Shown here: in pieces, positions 22,316 through 58,675 of the stretch
Layout of the letters: each line of letters starts with the position of its first letter
How positions within the stretch are numbered: position 1 is the first letter of the stretch
Origin: an uncultured Anaerolineaceae bacterium
GTDB taxonomy: Bacteria > Chloroflexota > Anaerolineae > Anaerolineales > Villigracilaceae
Reading direction: 5' to 3'
Assembly (NCBI GenBank): GCA_964549865.1
Contig: CAZJYB010000002.1
Coordinates: 512-64,511, forward strand
Length of the DNA stretch: 64,000 bases
Made by a program: the position numbers and the translations under genes
Notes under the pieces: generated by a model
Seen by the model: only the letters and a program-made list of their open reading frames with translations
Database searches by the model: none
Told to the model about the DNA's origin: nothing

Positions 22316-22355
22316 CGAAATCAAACGATCTGTATAAATAATATAAGGTCTTAAA

Positions 22356-32171: not shown

Positions 32172-32882
32172 ATGCGCGCTATTATTCTTGCCGGCGGCAA
32201 AGGTACACGCCTTGCCCCGTACACAACTGTTTTTCCCAAACCGCTTATGCCGATCGGTGAAATGCCGATCCTTGAAATTGTTATTCGTCAATTGCAGCAG
32301 CATGGTTTTAATGATCTAACCCTTGCAGTTGGCTACCTAGCTGAATTGCTCATGGCCTATTGTGGAGACGGCAGCAAGTTCAATGTTAAGTTGGGATATT
32401 CACGCGAAGAACAGCCGCTTGGTACCGCTGGCCCCATTGCACTTGTGCCTGATTTGAATGAAACCTTCCTGGTGATGAATGGAGATTTACTCACCACCAT
32501 TGATTACAGCGAAATGCTTAAGCGTCATCGTGAACGAGGCGCGCTGGCCACTGTTGCCTGTTACCAACGCGATGTGAAGATCGATCTCGGTGTCATCGAC
32601 GTGGATTCCGATAACTGGGTCGCCAATTATATTGAAAAGCCCACCTATCATTATGCCGTCAGCATGGGCATCTATATCTTCGAGCCGGCCATCCTTGATT
32701 ATATTCTCCCAAACCAGCGCCTGGACCTGCCCGAACTTGTATTGAAGTTGATCAGTCAAAAGCAGAAAGTTAATGTGTTCAATTTCGATGGTTACTGGCT
32801 GGATATTGGGCGGCATGAGGATTACGAGACCGCCATCCATGAATTCGTCAAGAATCGGGAAAAGTTCCTGAGGGAAGAGTGA
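32172..32882 (+). CDS. Sugar-1-phosphate nucleotidylyltransferase
   Basis: It has the motif MRAIILAGGKGTRLAPYTTVFPKPL and LGTAGP. NTP specificity is unknown. Confidence 0.8.
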   Translation: MRAIILAGGKGTRLAPYTTVFPKPLMPIGEMPILEIVIRQLQQHGFNDLTLAVGYLAELLMAYCGDGSKFNVKLGYSREEQPLGTAGPIALVPDLNETFLVMNGDLLTTIDYSEMLKRHRERGALATVACYQRDVKIDLGVIDVDSDNWVANYIEKPTYHYAVSMGIYIFEPAILDYILPNQRLDLPELVLKLISQKQKVNVFNFDGYWLDIGRHEDYETAIHEFVKNREKFLREE

Positions 32883-34138
32883 GTTCTGCAATCCTGGTGC
32901 TTTTTACCGCCTCCTATCCTTATATAGTTGGAGGCGAGCAAAATTTCCTCGAAATGGAATTACAACATTTATTGCCGTCTTTTAAGCGGGTTGTGCTTGT
33001 ACCGGAGCAGTCTAATGGGTCGCGCCTGAACGAGCTCCCTCTCACGGAGGTTGACGGTAGTTATTCCAGTCATCTGGGTTCATATGGCATACTGCACACG
33101 TTTTTACGCGGACTCCTTTCGCCTCTTTTCTATCGCGGCCTTATGGAGAAACCCGTCCTGTTTTTTTCCTTTTCCGCGCTAAGGCGCTTGTTTTCGTTTG
33201 CAGGGAAGGCGGAAATAACAAGGCAATGGGTGACGAAATGGTTAAGAGCCCAGGACCTGGATGGAAAGGATTGCCTTTTCTACACGTACTGGTTCGATCA
33301 GGCAGCCGCAGGCATTTCCCTTGCCCGGCAAAGTTTTCCGGGATTGCGGTTGATTTCGCGCGCGCATGGCTACGACGTATACGAGGAACAATACTATAAT
33401 CCTCCCTTCTGGCCGTGTCGTAAATGGGTCCTGTCGGTCATCGATCGCGTTTATCCGGACTCAAAAGCCGCGGTCGCATATCTTCGCAGGAAATATCCTG
33501 ATTTTTCATCGAAATATGAAGCTTCGTTGTTGGGCGTCAGGGATCCCGGCTTTATTACAATGCCATCACAGGACGGTGTTTTTCGGATTATTTCATGTTC
33601 AATGATACGACCCGTAAAACGGGTGGATCGGTTGCTCAAAGCCATTCGGCATGCCGCGGTGCTGCGCCCGGACCAAAAAATTGACTGGCATCATTTTGGG
33701 ACTGGGGATATGCTGAATGCATTACAGAAGACCGCGGACGAGACCTTTTCTTCAAATGCCCGGGCTTATTTTCATGGATATTCAGACAATCCGGCATTGA
33801 TGCGCTTTTACAGGGAAAATCCACTCGATGTGTTCGTCAATCTTAGTGAATCCGAAGGTACCCCGGTCTCCGTCATGGAGGCCATTAGCTGCGGCATTTC
33901 TGTGATTGCAACCGCGGTCGGAGGAAATACGGAGATCGTATCGGAACAGAATGGCCTGCTGCTGAGCCCGGACCCTCTTGTGGACGAGGTGGCTTCCGCC
34001 TTCTTTTACTTTATGGACAATCCGACAGAGGCGGAAAAGAAACGAAACGCCAGTCGTGAGGTGTGGCAATCACAATATAACGCTGACCGTAATTTTTCGA
34101 TCTTCGCTCAAAAATTGATATCCGTGCGATCTGAATAA
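32879..34138 (+). CDS. Glycosyltransferase family 4
   Basis: It has VFVNLSESEGTPVSVMEAISCGISVIATAVGGNTEIV. Confidence 0.75.
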   Translation: MSSAILVLFTASYPYIVGGEQNFLEMELQHLLPSFKRVVLVPEQSNGSRLNELPLTEVDGSYSSHLGSYGILHTFLRGLLSPLFYRGLMEKPVLFFSFSALRRLFSFAGKAEITRQWVTKWLRAQDLDGKDCLFYTYWFDQAAAGISLARQSFPGLRLISRAHGYDVYEEQYYNPPFWPCRKWVLSVIDRVYPDSKAAVAYLRRKYPDFSSKYEASLLGVRDPGFITMPSQDGVFRIISCSMIRPVKRVDRLLKAIRHAAVLRPDQKIDWHHFGTGDMLNALQKTADETFSSNARAYFHGYSDNPALMRFYRENPLDVFVNLSESEGTPVSVMEAISCGISVIATAVGGNTEIVSEQNGLLLSPDPLVDEVASAFFYFMDNPTEAEKKRNASREVWQSQYNADRNFSIFAQKLISVRSE

Positions 34139-34313
34139 TATACAAATGAAAATAAATGCAACCTGTTTTGTCATGACAGTTCGAATTGGGCCATCCCGTG
34201 AGACCAAAACACCTGCCGGGTCGTTGGCGACGGATATTGGTTTTTGGCGGCATCACACGATCTTTTGCCGTGCTCAAACCGCGCATACGGTCATTGATCG
34301 AAGGCCATTGTAG

Positions 34314-35420
34314 ATGCGGATCGCATACGTCACCATCCATGTGGCTCCGCAGATCATGCAGGGAGGCGTGGGCGGTAAGATAAAAAGTCAGATATCCATC
34401 TGGCGCGAACACGGCCATGAAGTCACCCTGTTCGCGCTGACACCCGCGCCGATCCCCTTTTCGGACGCCCGTTCGTTTATTTTTGAAAGCCATTTCAGGT
34501 TCAGGTTGTTTGAGCTGATCGAACGCGAGATCAATCGTTCGATCATGCTAAAGCGCATGCTTGCTTCCGTGCGGGAATACCGGCCCGACCTGGTCTACCT
34601 TCGATTTGGTCTGTATTCATTTCCATTACACCGCATTTTCAAGATTGTCCCTGTCATACTGGAGGTCAACTCAAACGACCTGGACGAATACCGTTCGCGT
34701 GGAATGTTCTTTTACTGGTTAAATCGTGCGACCCGGGGTTTTATGTTCTCACATTGCGCAGGCTGGGTGGCTTCCAGTCATGAATTGGCCGACCGCAGGG
34801 AAAATCGCCGGCACGACAAGCCGGTGTCTGTGGTCTCGAATGGAATTGAACTGGATAAATATGAACCCTTTACGCCACCAGATAACCAGACGCCCTGCCT
34901 GTCTCTGGTGGGATCTCCCGGTATGAACTGGCACGGGGTGGATAAACTATTTGCACTTGCGACGCAGTATCCAGACCTGCTGATCAACATTATCGGGTAT
35001 CGGCCGGAGGATATAAGCCTGTCCATACCTGCCAATCTTCGTTTACACGGTTACCTGACCCATGAAGATATCAAGAGGGTGCTTGCCGCCACGGATGTGG
35101 TGTTCGGGACCCTGGCTTTACATCGCAAAAAAATGGAGGAAGCCTCACCGCTTAAAGTGCGCGAAGCGCTCGCCTATGGGATTCCCATCGTGATAGCCTA
35201 TCGCGATACGGATTTGAATGAACTTCACATGGACACCATTTTACGACTTCCCAATACTGAAGAAAATGTCATTCAAAATGCAGGGCATATTCGCAAATTT
35301 GCCTACGAGATGATGGGAAAACGTGTGGATGTTGACTTCCTTGCACCGTATATTGACCAGTGTCGCAAGGAGGAAACCCGCTTAAGCTTTTTCCGCGCGA
35401 TCCTGGATGGCAAGGTCTAA
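34314..35420 (+). CDS. Glycosyltransferase (GT4-like)
   Basis: Motifs seen are MRIAYVTIH..GGVGGK and EEASPLKVREALAYGIPIV. Confidence 0.65.
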   Translation: MRIAYVTIHVAPQIMQGGVGGKIKSQISIWREHGHEVTLFALTPAPIPFSDARSFIFESHFRFRLFELIEREINRSIMLKRMLASVREYRPDLVYLRFGLYSFPLHRIFKIVPVILEVNSNDLDEYRSRGMFFYWLNRATRGFMFSHCAGWVASSHELADRRENRRHDKPVSVVSNGIELDKYEPFTPPDNQTPCLSLVGSPGMNWHGVDKLFALATQYPDLLINIIGYRPEDISLSIPANLRLHGYLTHEDIKRVLAATDVVFGTLALHRKKMEEASPLKVREALAYGIPIVIAYRDTDLNELHMDTILRLPNTEENVIQNAGHIRKFAYEMMGKRVDVDFLAPYIDQCRKEETRLSFFRAILDGKV

Positions 35421-36560
35421 ATGAAGCCCTTGTCCATTTTGCTCCTTGGATCCCAAATGGCCACCGGCGGTGCCCAGAAGATCCTTCTTGATCAGGCGCG
35501 CTGGTTCCATGAGCACGGACATAAAGTAACTGTTGCGTTCTTTTATGACCGGGATGGTCTATTCAATGCCTGGAGGGAATCCCTGGGTCTGCCTCTGCAT
35601 GATCTGCAGGCATTCGACCGCAAGTCAGGTTTTTTTAAACGGGGCCTCTTATTCTTTAATGGCATGAGGAGACTATGGTCCATTCTTCGACGTGAAAAAT
35701 TCGATGTCGTGGTGACCTATACTCACGATAGTAACATGGTGGGCCTGCCCCTGGCGTGGCTGGCTGGCGTACCCGTCCGTATCGGGACACATCTGGGAGC
35801 GATACGCGGAATTCCAAAATGGCGGGAAAAGATCCATGCCCTGATGGTTAATATTGGATGTATTCAGACCCTGATCGTGGCATCCAAAGGAACGCAACAA
35901 AACGCAGTAAGAGAGGGTGTTTCGCCTGCTCGAATCCAGGTGATTCCAAACGGCGCCCAGCTATTTCACCTGGATCTCACAGATAGAAATAAAGTTCGCC
36001 ACAAGTTGGGGGTGGGCGAAGACCAGGTTCTACTGCTTTCAGTTGGACGCCTGGTCTATGAGAAGGGTCATGAGTTTCTTATACGTGCCATGCCGCAGGT
36101 GATTAAAGAATTTCCCGATGCGAAGGCCGCAATTTGCGGAAGTGGTCCTTTACAGGAATATTTGGCTTCCCTTATTTCACTCAACGTCCTCGATGATCAT
36201 GTGAAATTGCTTGGCCAGTGGGATGATATACCCAGCCTTCTGGGCGCGGCCGATGTTTTCGTATTACCATCCCGTTGGGAAGGATTATCGATCGCTTTGT
36301 TGGAAGGCATGATTGCAAAACTCCCGGTGGTAATCACGCGGGTGGAGGGAGTGGATGAGGTTATTGAAGACAATCTGAACGGTTTACTGGTGCCCCAGGA
36401 GGATTCGATGGCTCTCGCAAAAGCTATATTACAATTATTGAGGAATCCTGAAAAACGAGTCGGCATGGGTCTTGCAGGCCATGCGCGCGTCCTGCAAGGA
36501 TACACGACCGACCGCATGTGTGAACAATACTTGAAAGTGATAGAGAAACTTCTTGAATAG
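35421..36560 (+). CDS. Glycosyltransferase family 4
   Basis: Motifs seen are LLLGSQMATGGAQK and VFVLPSRWEGLSIALLEGMIAKLPVVITRVEGVDEVI. Confidence 0.85.
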   Translation: MKPLSILLLGSQMATGGAQKILLDQARWFHEHGHKVTVAFFYDRDGLFNAWRESLGLPLHDLQAFDRKSGFFKRGLLFFNGMRRLWSILRREKFDVVVTYTHDSNMVGLPLAWLAGVPVRIGTHLGAIRGIPKWREKIHALMVNIGCIQTLIVASKGTQQNAVREGVSPARIQVIPNGAQLFHLDLTDRNKVRHKLGVGEDQVLLLSVGRLVYEKGHEFLIRAMPQVIKEFPDAKAAICGSGPLQEYLASLISLNVLDDHVKLLGQWDDIPSLLGAADVFVLPSRWEGLSIALLEGMIAKLPVVITRVEGVDEVIEDNLNGLLVPQEDSMALAKAILQLLRNPEKRVGMGLAGHARVLQGYTTDRMCEQYLKVIEKLLE

Positions 36561-36599: not shown

Positions 36600-38795
36600 A
36601 TGAATAGGGCTTTTTCACAAGCTGTCGTTGGAAAAGCGCTGGGATCCCTGCTGCTTGCGTGGGTACTACTGGGCCTATGTTCCGAGTTTTACCAAATCGC
36701 CTGGGGCACCGGGAACTGGCGCGGTGAATTTTCGCGTACCTGGGCTTTACTTTATTACGGTTTAATTTTTACTTGTGTTGTACTCTTTGTATTTGCCGGT
36801 TCTTTTATCTGGCAGCGCGAGCGATTCGTGCGTTTCATTGATCGCATCATTATGGTCCGCCGGCGTTTTGGAAATCTGCGCTGGTTATTGGGCCTGTTTG
36901 TACTGCTTGCTCCGATCTGGTTTTTCCAGCATAGCCCATGGGGATTGGTCTTTCAAAAATTTTATTTTCGTATGGCGATCTGGGCGGTCATGGTTTATTT
37001 ACTCGCCATTATTTTTTCGAACGGCGCTTATCTCGCGGGTTGGAGGGAATTCCTGGCATCACTTGTGCTGACCTCCAGCATCTTTTCCATTGCAGCTTCG
37101 CTGAATTTTGTGAACGGATATCCGTTCTCGCTGGCTTGGTCGGAGGGCAATCGTCTGTGGGACTATTCCATTCTCTTTGGGAGGGAGTTGTATGATTATC
37201 CGGCCGACCAGGGTATTTTTGTATTCCTTGATTCTGGCCGTAAACTCGTGGGTGGCCTGCCTTTCATCTTCCCCGGCGTAACGATCAGTATTCAGAGGCT
37301 GTGGGTGGGGCTCACCTTGATCATTCCTTATCTTTTGCTTGGGCTTGCCGCCTTTCGGATGATGGCAAAAGATAAAAAAATCTGGCTGATCGCAACTCTT
37401 TGGACCTATCTCTTCCTCAACCAGGGTCCCATTCATGCCCCCCTTGTTTTAAGTGCCGCACTGGTTGCGCTGGCCTGGCGCTCGCCATTGTGGTTTGCAA
37501 TTCCATTGGTGGTCGGCGCGGGATATTTTGTGCAGGCGAGCCGCTTCACATGGGTTTTCGCCCCCGGTATTTGGATCGTTATGTTGGAATTTACATCCGC
37601 TTCCTTATCGGACCCCAAAACTGCCCGGGCTACATGGGCACGTTCCATCGCTTTGGGTTTTTTTGGCATCTTCGGCGGTTTTTTTCTGCCGACAGTACTC
37701 GCGCTATCAACCGCTGCTTCAAATGCCGTAGCTGCGATTGACCCTGTCACAGTGACTCCAATTGCAACAGTAGCTTCTCAATCTGCGATGCCGCTCGCAG
37801 CCACCCCTGTTCCCACTGCCGTAATAGTGGAGAATATTTCTCGTCCCGCATATATTGATCATGTAATCCAATTGGTCATGGATCAACCACTATTGTGGTA
37901 TCGTCTGCTGCCCAATTCCACTTACGGCAATGGAATCCTGTACGCGCTTTTGCTTGCAGTTGGCCCGTTGCTGGTGATTTTGTTTTACCTTGCGATCAAA
38001 AAATTGTGGCGCTTGAACGCCCTGCAAAAACTTTGTCTTGTTTTGCCATTACTTGCATTCCTCGCTGTTGGGCTTGTTGCAAGTACGAAGATCGGCGGCG
38101 GCGGTGACTTGCACAACATGGATATGTTTCTGATCGGCCTGTTTTTCAGCGGGGTGGTTGCCTGGCAAAATGGCGGCAAAGATTGGTTACAGGATGCGCA
38201 AGCTGTGCCTCAAATTATGAAGATCGTGGTGGTTGTTCTTCTGGTGACATTATCTTCTGTAGGTCCTCTTATGGAGATGCGTTCCTATAGCTTTGCAGGA
38301 GATACCCGTTGGCTGAAAACGCTGACCGATTTGCCTGAAATGGCCACGCTCGATATGTTGCCCGTACCAAAAGTTGTGGATTCCGCCATTCAAACCATTC
38401 AAGCAGAAGTGGATCAGGCTGAACCGCGAGGGGAGATCCTGTTCATTGACCAGCGTCAGTTATTAACTTTTGGATATATTAAGAACGTTCCTCTTGTTCC
38501 AGAGTATGAGAAGAAAGTATTGATGAATCAAGCCTTAAGCTCCGATGCCGAATATTTCAAGGAATTTTATGCCGATCTTGCTGCCCAGCGTTTTTCATTG
38601 ATTGTTAGTGAACCACTGCGTACCCCGATAAAAGATAGTTCGTATCAGTTTGGCGAAGAAAATAACGCCTGGGTAAAATGGGTGGCAGCACCGATTTTGT
38701 GCTATTATGAGCCGCTTGATACACTAAAAGAAGTTAATGTTCAGTTGCTAATTCCCAAAACCGAGGCTGTTGATTGCCAGGCCATACTTCCCTGA
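36600..38795 (+). CDS. Polytopic membrane protein with a soluble C-terminal domain; unassigned family (paralog A)
   Basis: It is a long 731-aa ORF with many TM helices. The conserved blocks YPFSLAWSEGNRLWDYSILFGR, STKIGGGGDLHNMDM and FGEENNAWVKWVA are shared with 38823-40916. Confidence 0.5.
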   Translation: MNRAFSQAVVGKALGSLLLAWVLLGLCSEFYQIAWGTGNWRGEFSRTWALLYYGLIFTCVVLFVFAGSFIWQRERFVRFIDRIIMVRRRFGNLRWLLGLFVLLAPIWFFQHSPWGLVFQKFYFRMAIWAVMVYLLAIIFSNGAYLAGWREFLASLVLTSSIFSIAASLNFVNGYPFSLAWSEGNRLWDYSILFGRELYDYPADQGIFVFLDSGRKLVGGLPFIFPGVTISIQRLWVGLTLIIPYLLLGLAAFRMMAKDKKIWLIATLWTYLFLNQGPIHAPLVLSAALVALAWRSPLWFAIPLVVGAGYFVQASRFTWVFAPGIWIVMLEFTSASLSDPKTARATWARSIALGFFGIFGGFFLPTVLALSTAASNAVAAIDPVTVTPIATVASQSAMPLAATPVPTAVIVENISRPAYIDHVIQLVMDQPLLWYRLLPNSTYGNGILYALLLAVGPLLVILFYLAIKKLWRLNALQKLCLVLPLLAFLAVGLVASTKIGGGGDLHNMDMFLIGLFFSGVVAWQNGGKDWLQDAQAVPQIMKIVVVVLLVTLSSVGPLMEMRSYSFAGDTRWLKTLTDLPEMATLDMLPVPKVVDSAIQTIQAEVDQAEPRGEILFIDQRQLLTFGYIKNVPLVPEYEKKVLMNQALSSDAEYFKEFYADLAAQRFSLIVSEPLRTPIKDSSYQFGEENNAWVKWVAAPILCYYEPLDTLKEVNVQLLIPKTEAVDCQAILP

Positions 38796-38822
38796 ATATT
38801 TGTTATTTAATCAAACAAACTT

Positions 38823-40916
38823 ATGAAACGATCAGAAAAAATCCTATTTACCTTATATGCATTTGTATTACTTGCAGGTTCTTGCATCGATTTTTTTGAC
38901 ATTGCCTGGGGTACGGGCATATGGCTTGGCGAATTTGCGCTGACCTGGGCGATGCTGTTCGCCTTCTTTTGCTTCTGCTGTCTGTTGGCCTTCATTCCAA
39001 TAGTTCAGATTATTTGGAATGACAAAAGCTTTAATACCCTCGTTGGCAGATTAATTGTTTTTCGCAGCGATCTAAAGCGTGGACGCTGGCTATTCGCTGC
39101 AATTGTCTTTATTTTTCCTCTATGGTTGCTTCAATTTACGGTATTGGGAATTGTCTTCCAAGGCTTGTTTTTAAGATTAAGTTTATGGACTCTTGAACTG
39201 TTTTTTCTTTCGTTTTTATTTACAACAAAAAAAGATGCCCTGATCGATTGGAAGGTTTTCCTGTTTTGTCTTGTGTTGACGGCAGGTTCTTTTTCAGTGT
39301 TGGCCTCCTTGAAACTTGTTACCGATTATCCGTTTTCTCTGGGATGGTCCGAGGGAAATCGTCTTTGGGATTATTCGATCTTATTTGGTCGTGCGAGATA
39401 TGATTATCCTGATGGGCAAAAAATAGATGTCCTCCTTGAAACGGGCAGGCAAATGGTCGGTGGCCTGCCGTTTTTAATACCCGGTCTTACCATTAAAATG
39501 GAAAGAATGTGGGTTGGGCTTGTCTCCATTTTGCCCTATATTTTATTAGGCCTGGTTGTTTTTCGCCCGTTTGCTCGTGAAAAATATATCTGGCTGAGTG
39601 CAGTGTTATGGGCATACCTTTTCCTGAAGCAAGGGCCCATAAATCCCTCGCTTGTTCTATGCGCAGTTTTGGTTGCTTTTGCATGGAGGCACAAGCTTTG
39701 GCTTTCAGGTTTACTGGTTGTACTTGCAAGTTATGCAGCATATATAAGCAGGTATACATGGACCTTTGCGCCCGCCATGTGGTTTGTTCTGCTTGAATTC
39801 CTGGATGCCCCGCCTGCCGATGGGAATAAATTTCATTTGACGCCAAGAATTCGTTCATTCCTGCAGCTGTTTGCCTTCGGCCTGATTGGCGCTTTTTTTG
39901 TTTTGGGCGCGCTGTTTTATTTTCAACCAGGTGGCCCAGTGGATGTTTTGGGATTTTTTCGTACTTTGGAAATATCCCCTGAAAACGTGCGGGAGAAAAT
40001 ATCCCAACAGGCTCTTCTATGGTATCGCCTGCTGCCCAATGAAACCTATGGGAATGGCATCCTGATAGGCCTGGTTCTTGCCGTTCTACCTCTTATTCTT
40101 ATATTGCTTTATCTTTTGATGTTCAGAAAATGGAGCATCAATATTTGGCAGAAGTGGACGATGGTTCTCTGCCTGCTTGCTTTTTTGCTGGTTGGTCTGG
40201 TTGTTAGCACTAAAATTGGAGGCGGCGGTGATCTGCACAATATGGATATGCTTCTGATCGGATTGTTTTTTGTGGCGCTTGTTGTCTTTTACAATGGGGG
40301 CAAGGATTGGTTGCAAAACAGCCAGCTTGAACCTTTGTGGATTAAAGCTGCGCTTGTATTTTTGATCGCCATTCCTGCGATTGGACCTTTACAGGAACTG
40401 CGATCGTATAATTCTGGCAGTGCTGCACCCTGGCTTGTTGCGCTTACCGACGCGTCCAATGAAAGGGCCCTGGATATATATCCATCGGAGCAGGTAATTC
40501 AGGAATCGTTAAATGCGATTCAACATGAAGTCGATCTGGCAAAAGTGCAGGGCGAGGTCCTTTTTATGGATCAGAGACAGTTATTAACCTTTGGGTTTAT
40601 AGATAACGTGCCACTTGTCCCTGATTATGACAAAAAGGTCTTGATGGAACGGGCGCTTACAAAAAACCGCGGCTACTTTCAGGAATTTTACAGGGATTTG
40701 GAGGAAGGCAGGTTTTCTCTCATTGTTGTCCAGCCGTTGAATACGCCAAGAAAAGGAAGCGATTTTGAGTTTGGTGAAGAGAACAATGCGTGGGTAAAAT
40801 GGGTCGCCAACCCATTGTTGTGCTTTTACGAAATCAGGCAGACATTGATCGATGTAAATGTACAGCTGCTGGTCCCAGGATCGCTTCCGATGGATTGTGC
40901 TGAAACCCTGCCCTGA
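38823..40916 (+). CDS. Polytopic membrane protein with a soluble C-terminal domain; unassigned family (paralog B)
   Basis: This 697-aa protein is colinear with 36600-38795 over its full length. Confidence 0.5.
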   Translation: MKRSEKILFTLYAFVLLAGSCIDFFDIAWGTGIWLGEFALTWAMLFAFFCFCCLLAFIPIVQIIWNDKSFNTLVGRLIVFRSDLKRGRWLFAAIVFIFPLWLLQFTVLGIVFQGLFLRLSLWTLELFFLSFLFTTKKDALIDWKVFLFCLVLTAGSFSVLASLKLVTDYPFSLGWSEGNRLWDYSILFGRARYDYPDGQKIDVLLETGRQMVGGLPFLIPGLTIKMERMWVGLVSILPYILLGLVVFRPFAREKYIWLSAVLWAYLFLKQGPINPSLVLCAVLVAFAWRHKLWLSGLLVVLASYAAYISRYTWTFAPAMWFVLLEFLDAPPADGNKFHLTPRIRSFLQLFAFGLIGAFFVLGALFYFQPGGPVDVLGFFRTLEISPENVREKISQQALLWYRLLPNETYGNGILIGLVLAVLPLILILLYLLMFRKWSINIWQKWTMVLCLLAFLLVGLVVSTKIGGGGDLHNMDMLLIGLFFVALVVFYNGGKDWLQNSQLEPLWIKAALVFLIAIPAIGPLQELRSYNSGSAAPWLVALTDASNERALDIYPSEQVIQESLNAIQHEVDLAKVQGEVLFMDQRQLLTFGFIDNVPLVPDYDKKVLMERALTKNRGYFQEFYRDLEEGRFSLIVVQPLNTPRKGSDFEFGEENNAWVKWVANPLLCFYEIRQTLIDVNVQLLVPGSLPMDCAETLP

Positions 40917-40929
40917 GAAGGACGTGCCA

Positions 40930-41757
40930 GTGAATTTTCAATATTTCTTGTTGCGATTGTTTCGCCATTTTATGCCGGAAGGCGTTGCGCGTTTTCTATT
41001 GAAGCGCAGGTGGATCATTCGTCCCGGCCTTGAATCAAGGGACCCGCTGGCGGCGGTCGAAAAATATGTTCAAGCACTGGGAGTCTATGGCAAATCGATC
41101 CAGGGTAAACGCATCCTTGTTTTTGGTTACGGCGGACGTTTTGCTGTCGGTGTGGAACTGCTGCGGCGGGGGGCAGCACATGTCGTGCTCTGTGATCACT
41201 ATGTGCTGCTGGATACGGAGCGTAATTTGGAGTTGCTCCCCGCATATTCAGATTATCTGATTGTTGAGACGGGGTATGTAAAACCACATGCGGATTTTAT
41301 CACCCTGCTTCATGGTGATATTCGGGATCCGCTGATCCAGACGCAGATTTTGGCCGTTGACATTGTGCTAAGTACATCTGTCTATGAACACCTGGAGGAT
41401 GTGGATGGAATTACACGTGCCCTGGCCAGGTTGACCACGCTGCAGGGCGCCCAATTGCACTTTGTGGATTTACGGGATCATTATTTTACATACCCCTTTG
41501 AAATGCTCACGTTCTCCGAGAATATGTGGAGGAATTTTCTCAACCCCACGAGCAATCTCAATCGCTTTCGGTTCCATGATTACCGTAAAGTGTTTGATGC
41601 GTACTTTCAAAAAACCGATATTATTATTTTAGATCGCCAGCAGGCCGAATTTAACGCCAGGCGTTCGCGCATTCGCCCCGAATTTCTTACAGGCGATGCC
41701 TCCATGGATTCTGTGACATTGATTCAAATCCTTGCCGAGTCCCCGGCCTCCACATGA
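40930..41757 (+). CDS. Class I SAM-dependent methyltransferase
   Basis: Motifs seen are ILVFGYGGRFAVG and IVLSTSVYEHLEDVDG. I chose GTG 40930 because GAAGGA lies 7 nt upstream, but the start is uncertain. Confidence 0.6.
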   Translation: MNFQYFLLRLFRHFMPEGVARFLLKRRWIIRPGLESRDPLAAVEKYVQALGVYGKSIQGKRILVFGYGGRFAVGVELLRRGAAHVVLCDHYVLLDTERNLELLPAYSDYLIVETGYVKPHADFITLLHGDIRDPLIQTQILAVDIVLSTSVYEHLEDVDGITRALARLTTLQGAQLHFVDLRDHYFTYPFEMLTFSENMWRNFLNPTSNLNRFRFHDYRKVFDAYFQKTDIIILDRQQAEFNARRSRIRPEFLTGDASMDSVTLIQILAESPAST

Positions 41758-44303
41758 GTATGCTCAAGAACAGGCTTTTTCTTCTTAAGATATTTTTATT
41801 ATTCGCGACCATCGAAAGTATGGTCGCATTATTTGTTCTCGCCTCGATCCCTTCGGATTCAAAAAATGCAATATTTTTTGGTTTCTCCACTTCGCGCCTC
41901 TTATTAATTGGCGTCGTCTTCATAATTTTCTTGACGGCAACTGGCCTGCTGGGGTGGTTGCATATTTCCCGGTCGAAAACAGACCGCTTAATGGATTTTA
42001 TGAGTGTTTTTTTATCCGATCACAAAAAACACCAGGCCCTTGTATTTGTTTTTGGTTCGATCATAATATTCGGCGGGGTATTCCTGCTTATCCCGGCCGA
42101 AAGACTTGGCGAAGCCATGGTTCAGCGCGTCATCCCTGTGGTGGTGTTGGGAATGCTGCTTGCAATTCAGGTGCTTGTTTTTCAGTTTTTATGGTTGGAG
42201 AGAAAAATATATTGGGAACAGCTCCTGCGATGGAAACACGAGTTTTCGATTGCGGGAATTGTGCTTGTTTTTTTCATTTTGTTATGGATCTTGATGGCAT
42301 GGAGCGGTATTGGGGTTCGGCCCGAGCCAAGCGGGTGGTTCCCACCTGGCACCCCGCTGCTTGCTCAACAAGTTTTGTGTGCATGGATTATTGGCTTTGG
42401 GGTCGCTTTCTTCGGTATGCGGCTAAATCGATCCAGTGAATTGAATAAATTTGATTACATCATCGTGTCTGTCCTGTGGCTGGTGGCGGGTTTGATCTGG
42501 TGGGCCGAACCTCTGCAGCGCTCGAGTTATTTCGCGCCGGACCCGACACCGCCGAATTTTGAATACTATCCCTATTCAGACGCGGCACTTTATGACGAAT
42601 TCTCCCAAAATATTTTGATCGGTACAAGCCGGCGGGTGGGCCTGACGCACCGTCCGCTATATTCGTTCTTTCTTGCATTGTTGCATGGACTTGCAGGACA
42701 AAAATTTGAAACAGTCATATTCTTTCAGGTCTTCAGCGTGGCACTTATGGTGGTCTTTATATATTTGCTCGCATCCAATCTCGGAGGGCGGCCCGCCGGT
42801 ATAGTTGCGGGGTTGCTGCTGATATTTCGTGAGAGAAATTCCATAGCCTTGACCAATATTATTGAGGTCTCGCACGTTAAATTGATCATGTCTGATGTGC
42901 CGACGATGATGCTGCTGCTCATGTTCATATACTTTTTTGTCAGGTGGCTTCAAGACGAGCGCGGCCGATATTATCTTGGCGCACTGGCAGGCGTGCTCTT
43001 TGGTTTTACCATTCTTATTCGCAGCCAGGCGCAGTTATTGATCCCGATTGCCTTGTTGGGAATTGCGATCTCGAAATGGGATGGTTGGAAGTCGGTCCTT
43101 AAAAAGTCGCTGATCTTTTTGTTCGGGCTGTTGGTTGTTGTTGCACCGTGGGTGTGGAGAAACTATCAAGTATCTGGAAATGTGGTTGTTGAATATCAGG
43201 AGTTTTATACGCGCATCATTGCGAGCGGATATTCGTCATCTCCCCATGATATCGATATGTTGCCCGGCGAATCCGTTGAGCAGTATAAGGCCAGGATGAA
43301 GTCGCTGATTATCGGCTTTATCATCGATCGTCCATGGGAAGTGGCGCGCTTCTATTCCTCATATTTTCTTCATAACGAAATTTCGTCGGTTGTTTACCTG
43401 CCCATGTCGCCTCAATTCCAGGACATACATGCTTATGTCAAACAAATGGATTTTTGGGGCAGTACCCCTCTGGGAATGCCTCCGCCGGGAACCCTGCCCA
43501 TGTTCCTTTTATCTCTTGGGTTGATTGCAGTGGGGATTGGAACCGCCTTTTCGCGTGCACGCTGGGCAGGCCTGATGCCACTCTTTTTTCATCTTGGTTA
43601 TAGCTTTAGTGTAGTGCCCGTGCGCATGTCTGGGTGGCGGTTCATTCTGCCTGTGGACTGGGTTTCAGCCTTGTACTTCAGTATTGGCTTGATGCAAATC
43701 ACGATCATCTTGCTGGCGTTATTCTCCGGCAAGCCCGGGTTGAATTTTTTCATTAATGGAGAGTATCAAACTGAATCACAAACTATTGTTTGGAAACGAA
43801 CAGGGCTGGTGCTGGCTGTGTGCGCATTGATCGGCCTGTCTTTTCCGTTACTGGAATGGGGCATACCTGAACGTTATCCTCGTTTGAGCTCCACCGAGCT
43901 GGTCCAGACGTACGCACCGCATGGATTTGTGATGGATGGTGGAGAAACGGTCACTCTCGCAGCGTTGAAAACTTTCCTCGAAACAGAAGCAGGTTCAACG
44001 GTCCTGTACGGACGCGCTCTTTACCCTGCTTATTATGAGCAGGGGGAGTTTTGGGGCGAGGCCAGCCCCAACTTGATCGATGCCAGCCAATACGATCGTT
44101 TACAATTAAATTTGATCGGCCCTGATAATGCATTTGTTTACATCCCCATGCAGGACGTGCCACTATATTTTCCGCATGCTTCCGATGTTTTTATTGTGGG
44201 TTGTATGCAGGGGAACAGCGTACGGGCTTTGCTGGTCAAAGTGAACGATCGTTGGTTAATATCCTCCGCTTTCCATGGGTTGACATGTTCTATGTTGGAG
44301 TGA
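41754..44303 (+). CDS. GT-C fold membrane glycosyltransferase (GT39/PMT_2-like), paralog of 48230-50797
   Basis: It is an 849-aa protein with many TM helices. It has the loop motif PNFEYYPYSDAALYDEFSQNILIG, and its C-terminal domain is shared with the paralog. Confidence 0.6.
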   Translation: MSMLKNRLFLLKIFLLFATIESMVALFVLASIPSDSKNAIFFGFSTSRLLLIGVVFIIFLTATGLLGWLHISRSKTDRLMDFMSVFLSDHKKHQALVFVFGSIIIFGGVFLLIPAERLGEAMVQRVIPVVVLGMLLAIQVLVFQFLWLERKIYWEQLLRWKHEFSIAGIVLVFFILLWILMAWSGIGVRPEPSGWFPPGTPLLAQQVLCAWIIGFGVAFFGMRLNRSSELNKFDYIIVSVLWLVAGLIWWAEPLQRSSYFAPDPTPPNFEYYPYSDAALYDEFSQNILIGTSRRVGLTHRPLYSFFLALLHGLAGQKFETVIFFQVFSVALMVVFIYLLASNLGGRPAGIVAGLLLIFRERNSIALTNIIEVSHVKLIMSDVPTMMLLLMFIYFFVRWLQDERGRYYLGALAGVLFGFTILIRSQAQLLIPIALLGIAISKWDGWKSVLKKSLIFLFGLLVVVAPWVWRNYQVSGNVVVEYQEFYTRIIASGYSSSPHDIDMLPGESVEQYKARMKSLIIGFIIDRPWEVARFYSSYFLHNEISSVVYLPMSPQFQDIHAYVKQMDFWGSTPLGMPPPGTLPMFLLSLGLIAVGIGTAFSRARWAGLMPLFFHLGYSFSVVPVRMSGWRFILPVDWVSALYFSIGLMQITIILLALFSGKPGLNFFINGEYQTESQTIVWKRTGLVLAVCALIGLSFPLLEWGIPERYPRLSSTELVQTYAPHGFVMDGGETVTLAALKTFLETEAGSTVLYGRALYPAYYEQGEFWGEASPNLIDASQYDRLQLNLIGPDNAFVYIPMQDVPLYFPHASDVFIVGCMQGNSVRALLVKVNDRWLISSAFHGLTCSMLE

Positions 44304-44316
44304 GGTTGGAGCAGGA

Positions 44317-45960
44317 ATGTTGATGAAGTTTTCAGTTTTTCTCGAACGATACGAAAAAACCATCCCGATATTTTTATTCCTTTTGTTCCTGGCGGTTTCC
44401 ATTCCAGGGGCAAATTGGGGCGTTCCCGCGCTTTGGAACCCGGATGAAATGGTCTGGCGCGTGGATAGCGCCTTGCGCGGCGAGATTGTGTTTGACGAGA
44501 CGGAACCTGATTATAACTATCCATCCCTGCCAAAATACATTATGTTTGGAATTGGGAAGATCGTATATGGGCTTGGATATTCCCGCTCTATATTTTTTAT
44601 CTCGGCCCGTGTATTTTCCGCGATACTAGGCGCCGTGGGTGCGGTTCTTATTTATTATTTGACACGAACCATCGGCGCAAAAGTCTCAACTTCTGCATTG
44701 GCCGGGTTGCTTTATATTGCAAGTGGTCTGGCGCCTGCGAATGGGCGATTTGCACATAACGATCTGTATCTGCAATTATTTTCCATTCTTTGTGTTACCT
44801 TTGCGATAAAGTATCAATATACCAAATCCAGGTTGTGGATTTACGCCTCATTTCTTGCTGTTGGTTTGGCCGCTTCCAGCAAGTTTACGGGTGGAACTCT
44901 TCTACTTGTACCTTTGTTTGTTCTGGTCGTAATGAATTGGCACGCAGTCCGACGGGACGGGTTGCGTTCGTTGGAAACATTGTTGATCAGCGCGGGGTTA
45001 TGTTTTGGTGGTTATGTGATCGGCACCCCCAAGGCCCTGTTATGGATGGCGTATTATTTTAAACGGGTCATCCCTGCTCTTCAACGTTATCCCTTGTATG
45101 GTCAAAATTCTGGAAGTCCGATTGGGTTACTTGGGCAGTGGGCAGTGTTTGAGCAAGCTGTAGGTACATTCGCTTATTATTTATTCATTGGATGTTTTCT
45201 CTGGTTTGGGGTCAAGTTGGTCTTGTGGAGCTTGGGAAAAACAAAAATGGAGCAAGGGCAGGTGCAGGCGATTATTATCCTGATCGTTGCCCTGATTATT
45301 TTTGACATCCCTTTCCTGGTGTCCATTAATTATATTCCGCGTTATTTCATTCCATTTGTTCCATTTCTGGCCATTCTTGCGTCATTGTTCGTGGCGGATC
45401 TTTTAGAATTGGCTGAAAATAGAAGCTGGAAGTTTGTATCTGCCGCGATCGCCATCCTGCTCGTTGTTGGGATTTCGTATTCCTTTTTACGTTTGGTCAG
45501 CACTGCTTTATTGTTTATGAATGATGCACGCATGCCGGCCGGTGAATATATCGCAACAATACCCGGCGAAAATAAAACAATAGAATACACCCTCTATCCG
45601 CCAATCGTTAATAAAGCGCAATTCTTGAAAGCGCGTAACTACCCCATTTTTTTTGTGAAGTACCCCGGGGATATTGTGCCTACTGGAGGCAGGTTTGAAT
45701 ATAATCAGGGTGAGTTCGGTTTGATCGACCGCGAAGTGGATTACCTGGTAATCGATACATTTACATATTCAAGGTTTTATACCGATTCCATCTGTGATAC
45801 CAACCCCATGGAGTGCGATTTTTTCAAGCGTTTGCTTGCGGGTCAGGTGACGACATTCCGTTTGCTAGGGGAATTTACCTATACGCTGCCGCCCTATCTG
45901 CCAAAGGTTTCCATCTCGGCTGTTAATCCTGAGATACGTGTTTACGAACGGGTCCCTTGA
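44317..45960 (+). CDS. GT-C fold membrane glycosyltransferase (GT39/GT83-like)
   Basis: It has the first-loop motif WNPDEMVWRVDS, YPSLPKYIMFGIG, and multiple TM helices. Confidence 0.6.
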   Translation: MLMKFSVFLERYEKTIPIFLFLLFLAVSIPGANWGVPALWNPDEMVWRVDSALRGEIVFDETEPDYNYPSLPKYIMFGIGKIVYGLGYSRSIFFISARVFSAILGAVGAVLIYYLTRTIGAKVSTSALAGLLYIASGLAPANGRFAHNDLYLQLFSILCVTFAIKYQYTKSRLWIYASFLAVGLAASSKFTGGTLLLVPLFVLVVMNWHAVRRDGLRSLETLLISAGLCFGGYVIGTPKALLWMAYYFKRVIPALQRYPLYGQNSGSPIGLLGQWAVFEQAVGTFAYYLFIGCFLWFGVKLVLWSLGKTKMEQGQVQAIIILIVALIIFDIPFLVSINYIPRYFIPFVPFLAILASLFVADLLELAENRSWKFVSAAIAILLVVGISYSFLRLVSTALLFMNDARMPAGEYIATIPGENKTIEYTLYPPIVNKAQFLKARNYPIFFVKYPGDIVPTGGRFEYNQGEFGLIDREVDYLVIDTFTYSRFYTDSICDTNPMECDFFKRLLAGQVTTFRLLGEFTYTLPPYLPKVSISAVNPEIRVYERVP

Positions 45961-48229: not shown

Positions 48230-50797
48230 ATGTCTGTTTCATCAGGCTTTTCTGTTCAAAACAAGTGGATTGCTCTTTTTGTTTTATGGGCCCTGCATGG
48301 GTGTGTTGCTCTTTGGCAGTTTACAGCTTTATCTTCTGATAGCCATAAATTGTTGCCTGGCCCGTCCTTTTACAGGTTGGTGTTGGGTGGATTGTTATTG
48401 TCCTGGATTGTCATTAATTTTGTCTTGATCATCTCCATTTCCCGAAGATCGATGTGGCTGCATAAATTAATTGACAGATTTAAGGATCCTCTTGTGAAGG
48501 ATGTTTTTCTTGTAGTCGGAGTACTGGCGGTGATCTTACGGATATGGCTGGCCACCCAGGAAGGATTATTTGAAGCATCCGCGAATTTTCCATATGCTGC
48601 ATATTCGGATGTTCTTTCACCTCTGCTTGACCTGATGGTTTTTGTTTTCGTTGAGATCATCGCGTTGAATCTGTTTTTTGTTGTTCGCAGCAGGCCGGAA
48701 CATAAAAACCTATTTAAAGTCTTTCCCACCAGGCTGCTGATCGTTCTGGCGGTTTTGGGGATTGTGACTCTCTATATTTCCATAACGGGCCTGGGTATAG
48801 CCCCAAGCTATAAAGGCGACTGGGCGCGTGGGCTGCCTGCAGTTCCCTTGCTGGAATGGCAGATTATTCTGGCCTGTCTGTTTTGTGGTGGCATGGTTAT
48901 TGTTGAATCCAATGAGAAAATGTTAAAAATTTCCCGATTGGATTTATGGATTGCACTGGGGATATGGGTGGCAACAGTTGCTTTATGGCTTGGGCAGCCC
49001 ATCGTGCCGAACGCTGCGGCGCTCAAACCACACGAACCAAATTTCGAAATCTATCCTTTTAGTGACGCGCAAACCTATGACGAGTTCTCCCAATCCATTT
49101 TGATCGGCAATGGGTTTGACGTGGACAAAATTCCGCCACGCCCCTTGTACATCGTCATCCTTGCCATTATGCACATTTTGGTTGGACAGGATTACAGCAA
49201 TATGATCGCACTCCAGTCCATATTATTTGCCTTGTTTCCGGTTCTCCTGTATTTTTTTGGCACCGAATTCTTTGGGCGTCCAATTGGAATTTCCATTGCC
49301 CTTTTGGCGATTTTACGCGACTACACTTCAAATCTTGTTTCTCCGTTTACTGGCAATCTTGCTTATTCCAAACTTTACCTTTCCGAGATCCCCACTGCAA
49401 TGTTGTTAATTCTGTTTTTGCTGGTCGGCCTGCGCTGGATCAAGTCCGGGTTTCCGGTTTTTTCGGGACTGCTATTGGGAGGAATTTTGGGAGTGGCCAT
49501 GTTAATTCGCCCTCAGGTGGTGGTGGCATTCCCCATGCTTGTTTTGTTCGCCTTTGTTGTTCAGCCAAAAAGAATGGCGCCGATAATAAAAGGCTCGTTG
49601 TTGGCATTAATTACCGTGATCATGGTGATCAGCCCATGGCTCTGGAGAAACTCAAAAATTACAGGCGAATTCGTCTTTGATAGCCCAATATCTCAAATGG
49701 CCAACCTGGCTTTGCGATATAACAGATTGAATGGGGTTGATGTTAACATTATGCCTTTGCCTGGAGAAGCAGACTCCAACTACCATGCAAGATTGACCGA
49801 GCTTACAGCCAATGCAATTGATCTAAATCCATTGGGGATCGTCAGCGGGATCGCCAGTTCTTTTTTGAATCATGGAGTTAATAATATTCTTGTGTTCCCA
49901 TTAAGGAATACTCTCGGAAATTTTGGCGAACTCTGGACGCCCACAGATGCTTTCTGGGAAGGGTGGGAAGGCAGACCGACCCTATCTCAGGGATTATTGC
50001 TTGCTTTTTATGTTTTCCTGTTTGGGCTTGGATTAAGCACTGCATGGCAAAGAAATGGCTGGCTGGGCTTTCTGCCTTTGGGAGTTAATCTTCTCTATAA
50101 TTTATCGACCTCAGTGGCATTGATCTCCGGACAACGATTTATGTTGACATTGGATTGGTCCATATACTTATATTATATGATCGGTCTTTTTGCGTTGCTG
50201 AGCGCTTTTCTTTTTACGCTGGAAAGCGGACGGTCAGTGATACTCAAGTGGTATGAAGCCAATGCGTTGTCGTTTGTTGAGCAGGTTGACCTGAAAAAAT
50301 GGAGACAGTATATCTTTGCCGGCTTGTTATTCTTCGGGATCGGCGCTTCCCTGCCACTCAGCGAGATGGTGTTTCCGAAAAAATATCAGCCAGTTACTAA
50401 AGATGAGATGCTGGATGAGCTGGCGTCTTCCCCTGCCGTGAAACAATCAAAGCTGGACGCTTTTTGCCTTCAAAAGATTGTTGATGAGAACCATTTAAGT
50501 TTTGCTCAAGGGCTGGCAGTTTATCCCCGCTATTATCAAGCAGGTGACGGTGAAACATTTACCGATTCTGCCGGGTATAAACCTGTTGACGAAGGCAGGT
50601 TGGTATTTCAAATGATTGGCACGATCGATCAACGGATTATTTTCCCCATGTCGCTGCAGCCTGAATTCTTTCCCAATGCATCGGATGCAACTTTGTGGTT
50701 TGATGCCAGAGGAAATACGTGGGTTATTCTTGTCGAACAGGGCGACGTGCAAAGGATCTATTTTTCAGAGGCGTTGTTTCCCTCCATTTGTGACTGA
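48230..50797 (+). CDS. GT-C fold membrane glycosyltransferase (GT39/PMT_2-like), paralog of 41754-44303
   Basis: It is an 855-aa protein with the motif PNFEIYPFSDAQTYDEFSQSILIG and a colinear C-terminal domain. Confidence 0.6.
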   Translation: MSVSSGFSVQNKWIALFVLWALHGCVALWQFTALSSDSHKLLPGPSFYRLVLGGLLLSWIVINFVLIISISRRSMWLHKLIDRFKDPLVKDVFLVVGVLAVILRIWLATQEGLFEASANFPYAAYSDVLSPLLDLMVFVFVEIIALNLFFVVRSRPEHKNLFKVFPTRLLIVLAVLGIVTLYISITGLGIAPSYKGDWARGLPAVPLLEWQIILACLFCGGMVIVESNEKMLKISRLDLWIALGIWVATVALWLGQPIVPNAAALKPHEPNFEIYPFSDAQTYDEFSQSILIGNGFDVDKIPPRPLYIVILAIMHILVGQDYSNMIALQSILFALFPVLLYFFGTEFFGRPIGISIALLAILRDYTSNLVSPFTGNLAYSKLYLSEIPTAMLLILFLLVGLRWIKSGFPVFSGLLLGGILGVAMLIRPQVVVAFPMLVLFAFVVQPKRMAPIIKGSLLALITVIMVISPWLWRNSKITGEFVFDSPISQMANLALRYNRLNGVDVNIMPLPGEADSNYHARLTELTANAIDLNPLGIVSGIASSFLNHGVNNILVFPLRNTLGNFGELWTPTDAFWEGWEGRPTLSQGLLLAFYVFLFGLGLSTAWQRNGWLGFLPLGVNLLYNLSTSVALISGQRFMLTLDWSIYLYYMIGLFALLSAFLFTLESGRSVILKWYEANALSFVEQVDLKKWRQYIFAGLLFFGIGASLPLSEMVFPKKYQPVTKDEMLDELASSPAVKQSKLDAFCLQKIVDENHLSFAQGLAVYPRYYQAGDGETFTDSAGYKPVDEGRLVFQMIGTIDQRIIFPMSLQPEFFPNASDATLWFDARGNTWVILVEQGDVQRIYFSEALFPSICD

Positions 50798-58226: not shown

Positions 58227-58227
58227 A

Positions 58228-58263
58228 GTGTCAGGTTTCAGGTGCCATGTATCAGGTCATCTG
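58228..58263 (+). repeat. Left arm of the inverted repeat bracketing four-helix-bundle gene 2 (reiterated CAGGT units)
   Basis: GTGTCAGG and TTTCAGGTG pair with CCTGACAC (58662-58669) and CACCTGAAA (58646-58654). Confidence 0.6.
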
Positions 58264-58277
58264 AAAAGTAGATTATC

Positions 58278-58669: not shown

Positions 58670-58675
58670 ATACTT

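Follow-up and report, generated by a model that had tools for sequence, protein, structure and literature searches.

We analyzed a pair of adjacent genes in a 64-kb stretch of DNA (64,000 nucleotides, referred to below as the window) from an uncultured Anaerolineaceae bacterium. The two genes, here termed A and B, encode polytopic membrane proteins of 731 and 697 amino acids (aa), and their positions are listed in Table 1 together with those of their domains, candidate sites and neighboring genes. The window forms a single glycan-biosynthesis region throughout. The pair is preceded by a series of GT4/GT2, nucleotide-sugar and methyltransferase genes, and we confirmed its placement, as given in the initial annotation of this DNA, between a GT4 block (32879-36560) and a GT39-like block (PMT_2/PMT genes, 41754-45960). 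The same annotation had described two adjacent, colinear open reading frames (ORFs) with six conserved blocks in common. Both ORFs were recovered, and BLASTP aligned their products over the full length with 49% identity across 718 positions (E = 0). Each block occurs once per protein and at matching positions: YPFSL[AG]WSEGNRLWDYSILFGR (residue 174 of A and 169 of B), QGPI (275 and 270), LLWYRLLPN.TYGNGIL (431 and 398), STKIGGGGDLHNMDM (495 and 462), DQRQLLTFG (617 and 583), and FGEENNAWVKWVA (684 and 650).

The proteins belong to a large family, referred to here as the A/B family. A word-indexed search returned 1,890 relatives, the best 120 of which are all full length (~690-730 aa), and HMMER, run exhaustively against 1.84 billion cluster representatives, detected 1,116 clusters with E ≤ 1e-3, of which 669 had E ≤ 1e-30. 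Because approximately 1,100 clusters at 50% identity have the motifs in common, we consider A and B to be real genes under selection. At least 589 loci of the family were found in GTDB species genomes. Among the matches listed, all named members are 'hypothetical protein' entries of Anaerolineales, Anaerolineae or Chloroflexota, and the family has so far been seen only in Anaerolineae; this range rests on the best-scoring part of each list, and other phyla may also hold the family. No prior description of the A/B family, or of GT-C or oligosaccharyltransferase (OST) enzymes of Anaerolineae, was found in the literature.

Sequence searches connected the family to no known relative. Neither A nor B matched a Pfam-A or NCBIfam model, even at E ≤ 10, and 43 diverse members scanned singly against Pfam gave only noise, in which the best Wzy_C match (Wzy_C_2, E = 0.45) came from one of the 43. 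In particular, STT3 (PF02516), PMT and PMT_2 matches were absent from A, B and the 43 members. Hidden Markov model profiles of the family (A1, A2 and A3, from three alignments of 36, 43 and 80 sequences) retrieved only low-complexity transmembrane (TM) noise from all PDB sequences. The loop motif [YF][ST]DA..YD of the neighboring PMT_2 genes and the pattern WWD[YWFN]G, which covers the WWDYG motif at the start of the OST C-terminal domain, were each present in 0 of 80 members. No DxD or DxE is invariant in the family, D.D occurs anywhere in only 37 of the 80 members, and the only conserved acids of the membrane domain are Glu177 and Asp475 (B numbering, used throughout for residues of the family). 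Membership in GT39/GT83 was rejected for lack of a PMT or PMT_2 match, and membership in the canonical N-OST family (GT66) was rejected as well, with the STT3 match, WWDYG and a conserved DxD all missing. The initial annotation had noted that motifs of GT39/GT83, Wzy, O-antigen ligases and the (Y/F)(S/T)DA..YD type are lacking, which agrees with these results, and the Pfam scan it had called for matched no characterized family. We also used hhalign to compare the family profile with the 849-aa, 547-aa (PMT2_849, PMT_547) and 855-aa GT-C-like proteins of the window, using single sequences as well as locus-derived profiles. The highest probability was 19-21%, for the alignment of 'STKIGGGG' with 'SSKFTGG'. 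Since the positive control (PMT_547 versus PMT2_849) itself reached only 32%, this negative was not counted against GT-C membership.

Structure prediction was more informative. The AlphaFold2 (AF2) models of A (pLDDT 91.0, pTM 0.90; 80-sequence alignment) and B (pLDDT 82.1, pTM 0.83; 36-sequence alignment) contain ~15 membrane helices and, after these, an alpha/beta tail of 172 aa, essentially the dozen or so helices and ~170-aa tail anticipated earlier. We searched both models against PDB with Foldseek, a comparison with GT-C structures that had been recommended. For model B, the sole match at E ≤ 1e-3 was Archaeoglobus AglB (5gmy_A; rank 1, E = 9.5e-5, probability 1.00, TM-score 0.30-0.34), and PimE appeared at rank 4. 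For model A, ranks 1-9 were all GT-C_A glycosyltransferases (probability 0.94-1.00). Human STT3A (8b6l_I, E = 2.4e-3) was at rank 1, AftA (E = 6.4e-3) at rank 2 and PimE at rank 9, with a target-normalized TM-score (TMt) of 0.41; the top nine also included PglB three times, DPY19, and ArnT twice, the latter with the highest TMt for the full protein (0.43-0.44). Nearly all remaining folds, transporters or similar, had probabilities below 0.1, the exceptions being two AglB-S2 chains (0.96 and 0.66) and a glycosylphosphatidylinositol transamidase subunit at rank 16 (0.30). A and B were thus nearest to GT-C_A enzymes and to nothing else, and two independent models of 49%-identical proteins converge on one predicted fold class, nearest to GT-C_A.

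The same searches bear on a polymerase role. An assignment to GT-C_B, as a Wzy-type polymerase or an enzyme of the WaaL or SEDS type, would agree with a polytopic protein that has conserved outer-face Arg residues and lies in a glycan locus, and a polymerase had been proposed at first. Solved structures of this subclass exist (WaaL 7TPG, cited in PMC10920833), but none, if present in the searched library, was in the top 50 for either model; A, B and the 43 members gave no Wzy_C match beyond the Wzy_C_2 noise, and an ABC-transporter-dependent pathway has no need of a Wzy polymerase (PMC11127046). GT-C_B membership was therefore rejected for lack of structural or Pfam support, and we regard this explanation as extremely improbable.

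To derive a topology, TM boundaries were taken from the AF2 model and Lys plus Arg residues were counted per loop across the 43 members. The positive-inside rule supports a cytoplasmic N terminus (N-in) and 15 TM helices, with means of 4.2, 1.1, 2.3, 1.3, 1.6 and 2.2 in the cytoplasmic loops and 0.6, 0.5, 0, 1.0 and 1.0 in the short outer loops. All invariant membrane-domain residues are located in outer loops or at outer helix ends and interfaces. The WSEGNRLWD loop, for which a topology check had been advised, is placed outside by the N-in model together with all of these residues. This 61-residue loop follows TM5 and contains the motif YPFSLxWSEGNRxWDYS, of which GWSExxR is invariant; its Glu177 is near-invariant (at least 90% of members) and is also kept in a sister subfamily described below. 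Further outer-face invariants are R228, R310 and W313 (SRxTW), W400-Y401-R402-P405 (LLWYRLLPN), and S462-K464-G466-468-L471-H472-N473-D475. The Lys/His/Asn/Asp cluster of the last group, at KIGGGGDLHNMD, is a candidate phosphate- or metal-binding site. In GT-C families that use lipid-linked donors, all conserved residues are on the outer face and conserved Arg residues bind the (di)phosphate (PMC10920833), a description that the outward-facing invariants of the A/B family match.

This distribution also bears on the possibility that the proteins are transporters, flippases for polyprenyl-phosphate-sugars, or non-catalytic scaffolds that anchor the methyltransferase and GT4 enzymes. A flippase is required by three-component systems (PMC11127046), and the large polytopic protein is tightly coupled to a soluble methyltransferase-like gene (adjacent in 44 of 46 loci). 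However, the invariant residues are found only on the outer face and not along a transmembrane path, and flippases do not typically have a conserved external domain, here probably disulfide-bonded. The transporter matches in Foldseek all had probabilities below 0.1 with TM-scores of ~0.1, and on these values the transporter reading was rejected; transporter and scaffold roles together we consider very improbable.

The C-terminal tail of model A matched the C-terminal globular domain of AglB-S2 (3vu0_C) with a probability of 0.96, a TMt of 0.47 and a root-mean-square deviation (rmsd) of 6.3 Å over 160 columns, and a second AglB-S2 chain (3vu0_B) with a probability of 0.66 and a TMt of 0.45. With TM-scores below 0.5, the predicted resemblance to the OST globular domain is suggestive. 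Both residues of a Cys pair in the tail are present in 62 of 80 members, neither in 13 and one in 5. This co-occurrence fits a disulfide and hence a tail outside the cytoplasm; the tail is probably disulfide-bonded. The tail has invariant polar residues of its own (R585, E652/E653, N654, Y602 and Y669), as would be expected if it were the catalytic part of an extracytoplasmic membrane enzyme other than a glycosyltransferase, built on a GT-C-like scaffold and acting on lipid-linked or polymeric substrates (for example, a phospho-substituent or acyl transferase, a hydrolase, or an enzyme of polyprenyl-carrier recycling). Likewise, the Foldseek similarity to GT-C enzymes is weak (TM-score < 0.45), and no motif of a known GT-C family is present. 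[quoted passage not shown]

About ten of the loci carry, a few kb from the main copy, a full-length member of a divergent sister subfamily (~30% identity, 655-690 aa). It retains E177, R180, R228, R310, W313, W400, Y401, R402, K464 and GGG, as well as H472, N473, D475, R585, E652/E653/N654 and the Cys pair, so that the blocks GWSExxR, KIGGGxxLHNxD and LLWYRLLPN are kept, and it is without D183 and D583. Because E177 is kept while D183 and D583 are lost, E177 is the best candidate for a catalytic acid. The conservation also points to a basic-rich site with His, Asn and Asp, which would suit phosphate binding and possibly metal binding. A search with the sister subfamily returned 874 homologs, of which the source-named ones are all 'hypothetical' and from Anaerolineales/Chloroflexi; no precomputed Pfam domains were recorded in these homologs.

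Two copies of the A/B family itself are present in 15 of 84 related loci. In a neighbor-joining tree, which has no bootstrap support and is indicative only, A and B fall into different clades; among other tandem loci, L051 and L012 mix clades, and L039 and L071 hold recent duplicates. The GC content of gene B (0.442; 0.453 at third codon positions, GC3) is clearly below that of gene A (0.485; GC3 0.501) and of the neighbors. A recent in-situ duplication of A and B was rejected on the separate clades and the GC contents of 0.485 versus 0.442. The pair appears instead to represent an older paralogy, and the GC difference together with the tree suggests separate histories for the two genes. Along the window (mean GC 0.48), dips were observed at 38001-40000 (0.44) and at 14001-16000 (0.42).

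The best explanation overall is that A and B are paralogs in a previously unannotated integral-membrane glycosyltransferase family with a GT-C_A-type fold, to which we give slightly less than even confidence. Judged from the models, it is quite probable that the family represents a GT-C_A-fold extracytoplasmic glycosyltransferase that uses a lipid-linked donor, and the non-glycosyltransferase, transporter or scaffold, and GT-C_B polymerase explanations are jointly rather unlikely. Of the role proposed initially, extracytoplasmic glycosyltransferase or polymerase, the former gains support from the GT-C_A-nearest models and the outward-facing invariants, and a polymerase in the Wzy sense does not, for want of any GT-C_B match. 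The further suggestion of a possibly new GT-C-like family is supported by empty Pfam, NCBIfam and PDB-sequence searches and by models nearest to GT-C_A. What appears new here, as far as the models indicate, is a family within the GT-C_A fold class in which the catalytic-type loop lies at an unusual place and the OST-like tail is without the OST motif.

Several observations weigh against this assignment. Comparisons with Pfam, NCBIfam and PDB, and the low-power hhalign test, detected no resemblance of the family to a GT-C family in sequence or profile. The Foldseek E-values are modest, and global TM-scores to solved GT-C structures are 0.25-0.44, below the same-fold level of 0.5, with rmsd values of 12-15 Å. 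GT-C enzymes have a domain of 7-13 helices plus an extracytoplasmic domain of small size, in general after TM1 (PMC11127046). In the A/B family, the TM1-TM2 loop has ~11 residues and no conserved acid. The canonical GT-C_A loop, a long one with juxtamembrane helices and the catalytic Asp/Glu, is absent from its usual place directly after TM1, and a loop of such a make-up (61 residues, two short helices, Glu177) is found after TM5. We infer that the post-TM5 loop is the equivalent of the first extracytoplasmic loop (EL1), and that the family has four extra N-terminal helices relative to the usual GT-C layout.

The genomic context of the family was assessed by tblastn of the window proteins against the 84 related loci, 49 of which are at least 15 kb long. 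The cassette has the order GT4, A/B family, methyltransferase-like gene and PMT-type GT-C genes, with Wzm/Wzt nearby, and the same order was seen in the called-gene tables of two long contigs. A GT4 gene like the one next to gene A is immediately upstream of the family in 28 of 36 loci. The methyltransferase-like partner, present in 67% of the loci, is the neighbor most tightly kept: in 44 of the 46 loci that have it, it is the next gene downstream and lies on the same strand. In 51% of loci the 547-aa PMT-type GT-C was found, always downstream and on the same strand, and the PMT-type neighbors vary between 20% and 51% across loci; among the membrane components of the cassette, the A/B family is the most constant one. 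On the opposite strand, 57% of loci have a methyltransferase-GT2 fusion. Co-occurrence with wzm/wzt in other genomes, a further check that had been proposed, was observed: Wzm/Wzt, with a carbohydrate-binding module (CBM), lies within 10 kb of the family in 31-37% of loci, always 3-9 kb downstream, and this figure is a lower bound, the corresponding pair in the window being 16 kb away.

Table 1. Features of the A/B locus and of related loci (positions refer to the window, except where a related locus, L, is named)
Feature	Position	Strand	Description
Paralog A	36600-38795	+	731 aa; 15-TM GT-C_A-like membrane domain and C-terminal globular domain
A post-TM5 extracytoplasmic loop	37101-37283	+	Residues 168-228; two short helices; YPFSLxWSEGNRLWDYS; candidate catalytic Glu182, Arg185
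A KIGGGGDLHNMD site	38088-38123	+	Residues 497-508; invariant Lys/His/Asn/Asp at outer end of TM13/TM14
A C-terminal domain	38277-38792	+	Residues 560-731; extracytoplasmic alpha/beta (predicted); DQRQ and FGEEN motifs; conserved Cys701/Cys726
Paralog B	38823-40916	+	697 aa; architecture as A
B post-TM5 extracytoplasmic loop	39309-39491	+	Residues 163-223; Glu177, Arg180; Asp183 lost in sister subfamily
B KIGGGGDLHNMD site	40212-40247	+	Residues 464-475; K464, H472, N473, D475
B C-terminal domain	40398-40913	+	Residues 526-697; R585, E652/E653, C667/C692
Sister subfamily copies	L037:12118-14166; L030:12933-; L056:6661-; L022:7116-; L063:3214-; L040:4944-; L020:981-; L078:836-		
GT4 glycosyltransferase upstream	35421-36560	+	Pfam Glycos_transf_1, E = 3e-42
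Methyltransferase-like partner	40858-41757	+	299 aa, soluble, class-I S-adenosylmethionine type; Methyltransf_11 E = 0.014, Methyltransf_12 E = 0.026 (sub-threshold)
PMT_2-type GT-C	41754-44303	+	849 aa; Pfam PMT_2/PMT
PMT-type GT-C	44317-45960	+	547 aa; Pfam PMT_2/PMT
Wzm/Wzt pair	57381-59965	+	Wzt_C carbohydrate-binding domain
KpsC/S-like Capsule_synth gene	60008-61678	+	Part of export module 57381-61678, which in other genomes recurs 3-9 kb downstream of the family
Second Wzm/Wzt pair	12452-14636	+	Wzt_C
GtrB-like GT2	6880-7842	+	320 aa; two C-terminal TM helices

In this context, the A/B family probably helps to assemble envelope polysaccharides of Anaerolineae. The adjacent GT4/GT2 enzymes would build a glycan in the cytoplasm, which would be methylated or capped and then exported by Wzm/Wzt, and the A/B-family proteins would act on the exported glycan outside the membrane. 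The invariant residues would form one active site at the outer-leaflet interface, for which E177, R180, R228, R310, R402, K464, H472, N473 and D475 are catalytic candidates. The Arg, Lys and His residues, possibly with a metal held by H472/N473/D475, may bind the phosphate(s) of a polyprenyl-phosphate-linked donor, Glu177 may serve as the catalytic acid/base, and the C-terminal domain may position the acceptor.

Concerning the donor, we prefer the reading that the family transfers single sugars from polyprenyl-phosphate-sugars onto the exported glycan or an envelope acceptor, to which, by analogy with known enzymes, we assign a probability at or just under that of the best overall explanation. 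ArnT, AftA, PimE and DPY19 score near-equal to the OSTs in the structural comparison, a GtrB-like synthase is encoded in the locus, and the family has undergone recurrent diversifying duplication into several paralog clades, which under this reading would mirror specificities for different linkages or acceptors. We prefer a monosaccharide donor mainly because of priors, lipid-phosphate-monosaccharides being the donors of most GT-C_A families, and because of the duplication pattern.

Three groups of known enzymes offer parallels for single-sugar transfer. The ArnT/PMT-type enzymes (GT83/GT39) are extracytoplasmic and use a polyprenyl-phosphate-sugar donor; A and B are likened to them from predicted structure (TMt 0.43-0.44 for model A), and such genes lie directly downstream in the same operon. 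In contrast to these enzymes, A and B have no Pfam match, the family has the [YF][ST]DA..YD motif in none of 80 members, and the low-power profile comparison was negative. The mycobacterial enzymes AftA, EmbA/B/C and PimE (GT85/GT53/GT87) include the rank 2 (AftA) and rank 9 (PimE) matches of model A, and the mycobacterial systems employ several GT-C enzymes to elaborate, outside the membrane, a glycan exported by an ABC transporter, comparable to the at least seven GT-C-like genes and the tandem paralogs of the window. EmbA and EmbB are paralogs that work as a pair. Unlike the mycobacterial enzymes, A and B come from a Chloroflexota host and have no sequence relationship to them, and the window shows no evident decaprenyl-phosphate-arabinose pathway. 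GT136 (ORF12 of Citrobacter youngae O1) is a three-component-system GT-C that acts on an ABC-transporter-dependent O-antigen (PMC11127046). It is the nearest precedent for the A/B family: a GT-C without relatives by sequence, recognized solely from its predicted structure, which modifies a Wzm/Wzt-exported glycan and has a C-terminal extracytoplasmic substrate-binding domain. A GtrB-like GT2 is among the genes of the window. GT136 differs in having 11 TM helices, a periplasmic catalytic loop after TM1 and a beta-rich CBM, whereas A and B have ~15 TM helices, a post-TM5 loop and an alpha/beta OST-like tail. The likeness is of kind only and implies no homology.

A different substrate is conceivable. 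As an OST-like ligase, the family would move a whole Wzm/Wzt-delivered, polyprenyl-diphosphate-linked glycan en bloc onto the final acceptor, which could be peptidoglycan, a lipid anchor, or a protein of the envelope or S-layer, in analogy to WaaL, WsaB or PglB. The top structural match of each model is an OST catalytic subunit (AglB, 9.5e-5; STT3A, 2.4e-3), with PglB matched three times, and the predicted tail resembles the globular domain of AglB-S2, a kind of domain that only OSTs have among GT-C enzymes. STT3, AglB and PglB (GT66, GT-C_A) are the best structural neighbors of A and B and, as is predicted for A and B, have an N-in polytopic domain followed by an extracytoplasmic alpha/beta domain, with conserved residues on the outer face. 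An ABC-transporter-dependent pathway needs a transferase of this kind, and no Wzy_C/WaaL or LCP domain was found in the 46 scanned neighboring ORFs of at least 200 aa (the window has 47 real ORFs, excluding A and B). The outer face has four or five invariant Arg/Lys residues, which would fit diphosphate binding, as in WaaL (PMC10920833). The constancy of the family within the cassette, where the PMT-type neighbors vary, and the presence of two Wzm/Wzt systems and two family copies in the window also agree with a ligase.

On the other hand, A and B differ from STT3, AglB and PglB in having no sequence similarity to them, no STT3 Pfam match, no WWDYG (0/80) and no conserved DxD, a long loop after TM5 and not TM1, ~15 rather than 13 TM helices, and TM-scores of 0.27-0.37. 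The lipid-phosphate-monosaccharide enzymes ArnT, AftA, PimE and DPY19 score almost as high, lipid-diphosphate-oligosaccharide donors are used by only one of the many known GT-C_A families, recurrent duplication into clades is more typical of specificity-diversifying transferases, and a ligase could be encoded elsewhere in the genome. WaaL, WsaB and PglL (GT-C_B, Wzy_C) may be functional analogs, in that they perform the last extracytoplasmic step and use Arg for diphosphate binding, but they belong to another structural subclass, with no Foldseek or Pfam similarity to A and B. On balance, we regard a ligase as unlikely, and its specific form, an OST-derived terminal transferase without the sequon-reading WWDYG that acts en bloc on an envelope protein or wall acceptor, as slightly less likely again. 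In that case, the tandem paralogs might serve the two export systems of the locus or act as a heterodimer.

Several other genes of the window were also noted. The methyltransferase-like partner has no TM helix, and as annotated, its first 59 nt lie within the end of B; its true start may be a downstream Met at ~40972. It looks like a member of an unannotated methyltransferase family that is functionally coupled to the A/B family. The two Wzm/Wzt exporters would imply two terminally capped glycans or two export routes, and the number of these pairs equals that of the family copies in the window. The 477-aa methyltransferase-GT2 fusion (52832-54265, minus strand) is possibly a chain-terminating or capping enzyme that matches the Wzt carbohydrate-binding modules, by comparison with WbdD/WsaE-type terminators. 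A 613-aa PMT_2-type GT-C directly precedes the 320-aa GT2 (span 5039-7842, plus strand), whose two C-terminal TM helices give it the layout of a GtrB/DPM1-like polyprenyl-phosphate-sugar synthase. The pair has the layout of two parts of a three-component extracytoplasmic glycosylation system, and no flippase was identified.

Altogether, the window holds at least five GT-C-like membrane proteins besides A and B. A 549-aa protein (2370-4019, plus strand) with ~12 TM helices and no Pfam match at E ≤ 10 has a loop similar to [YF][ST]DA, the motif of the PMT_2-type genes, and is probably another unassigned GT-C-like enzyme. An 855-aa polytopic protein (48230-50797, plus strand) gave a sub-threshold PMT_2 match (E = 0.0034) and is clearly paralogous to the PMT_2 protein of 849 aa (26% identity; 100% probability in hhalign). 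A NeuB-type synthase, an aldehyde dehydrogenase, a CMP-sugar cytidylyltransferase and a 660-aa transketolase/DXP (1-deoxy-D-xylulose 5-phosphate)-synthase-like protein are encoded in a row at 15642-20903 (plus strand), which would be an unusual mix for a nonulosonic-acid or other keto-sugar pathway. Between this sugar-precursor block and the GT4 block lie two soluble ORFs (20906-23111, plus strand), one of 469 aa without a Pfam match and one of 251 aa with sub-threshold methyltransferase matches; they were found near the A/B family elsewhere in none of the 49 longer loci.

Chloroflexota, Anaerolineae especially, are abundant in sediments, soils and wastewater. Members of the phylum stain Gram-negative yet are without lipopolysaccharide and BAM pathways, and their multilayered envelopes, whose composition is not established, are thought to consist of polysaccharide or protein (PMC13319060). 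The A/B family represents a conserved, lineage-specific and testable part of the machinery that probably builds these envelope layers. Once assigned to GT-C_A, what had been a block of 'hypothetical proteins' becomes an enzyme that can be tested, with its catalytic candidates named, and the family would probably found a new CAZy glycosyltransferase family, as GT136 did. A catalytic-type loop after TM5, combined with an OST-like tail without WWDYG, would widen the known architectural range of GT-C enzymes. If the family were instead an en bloc ligase, it would add a further class of bacterial glycan ligase beside the WaaL/PglL-type (GT-C_B), LCP and PglB enzymes, would be of interest for glycoengineering, and would give molecular access to the outer layers of the Chloroflexota envelope.

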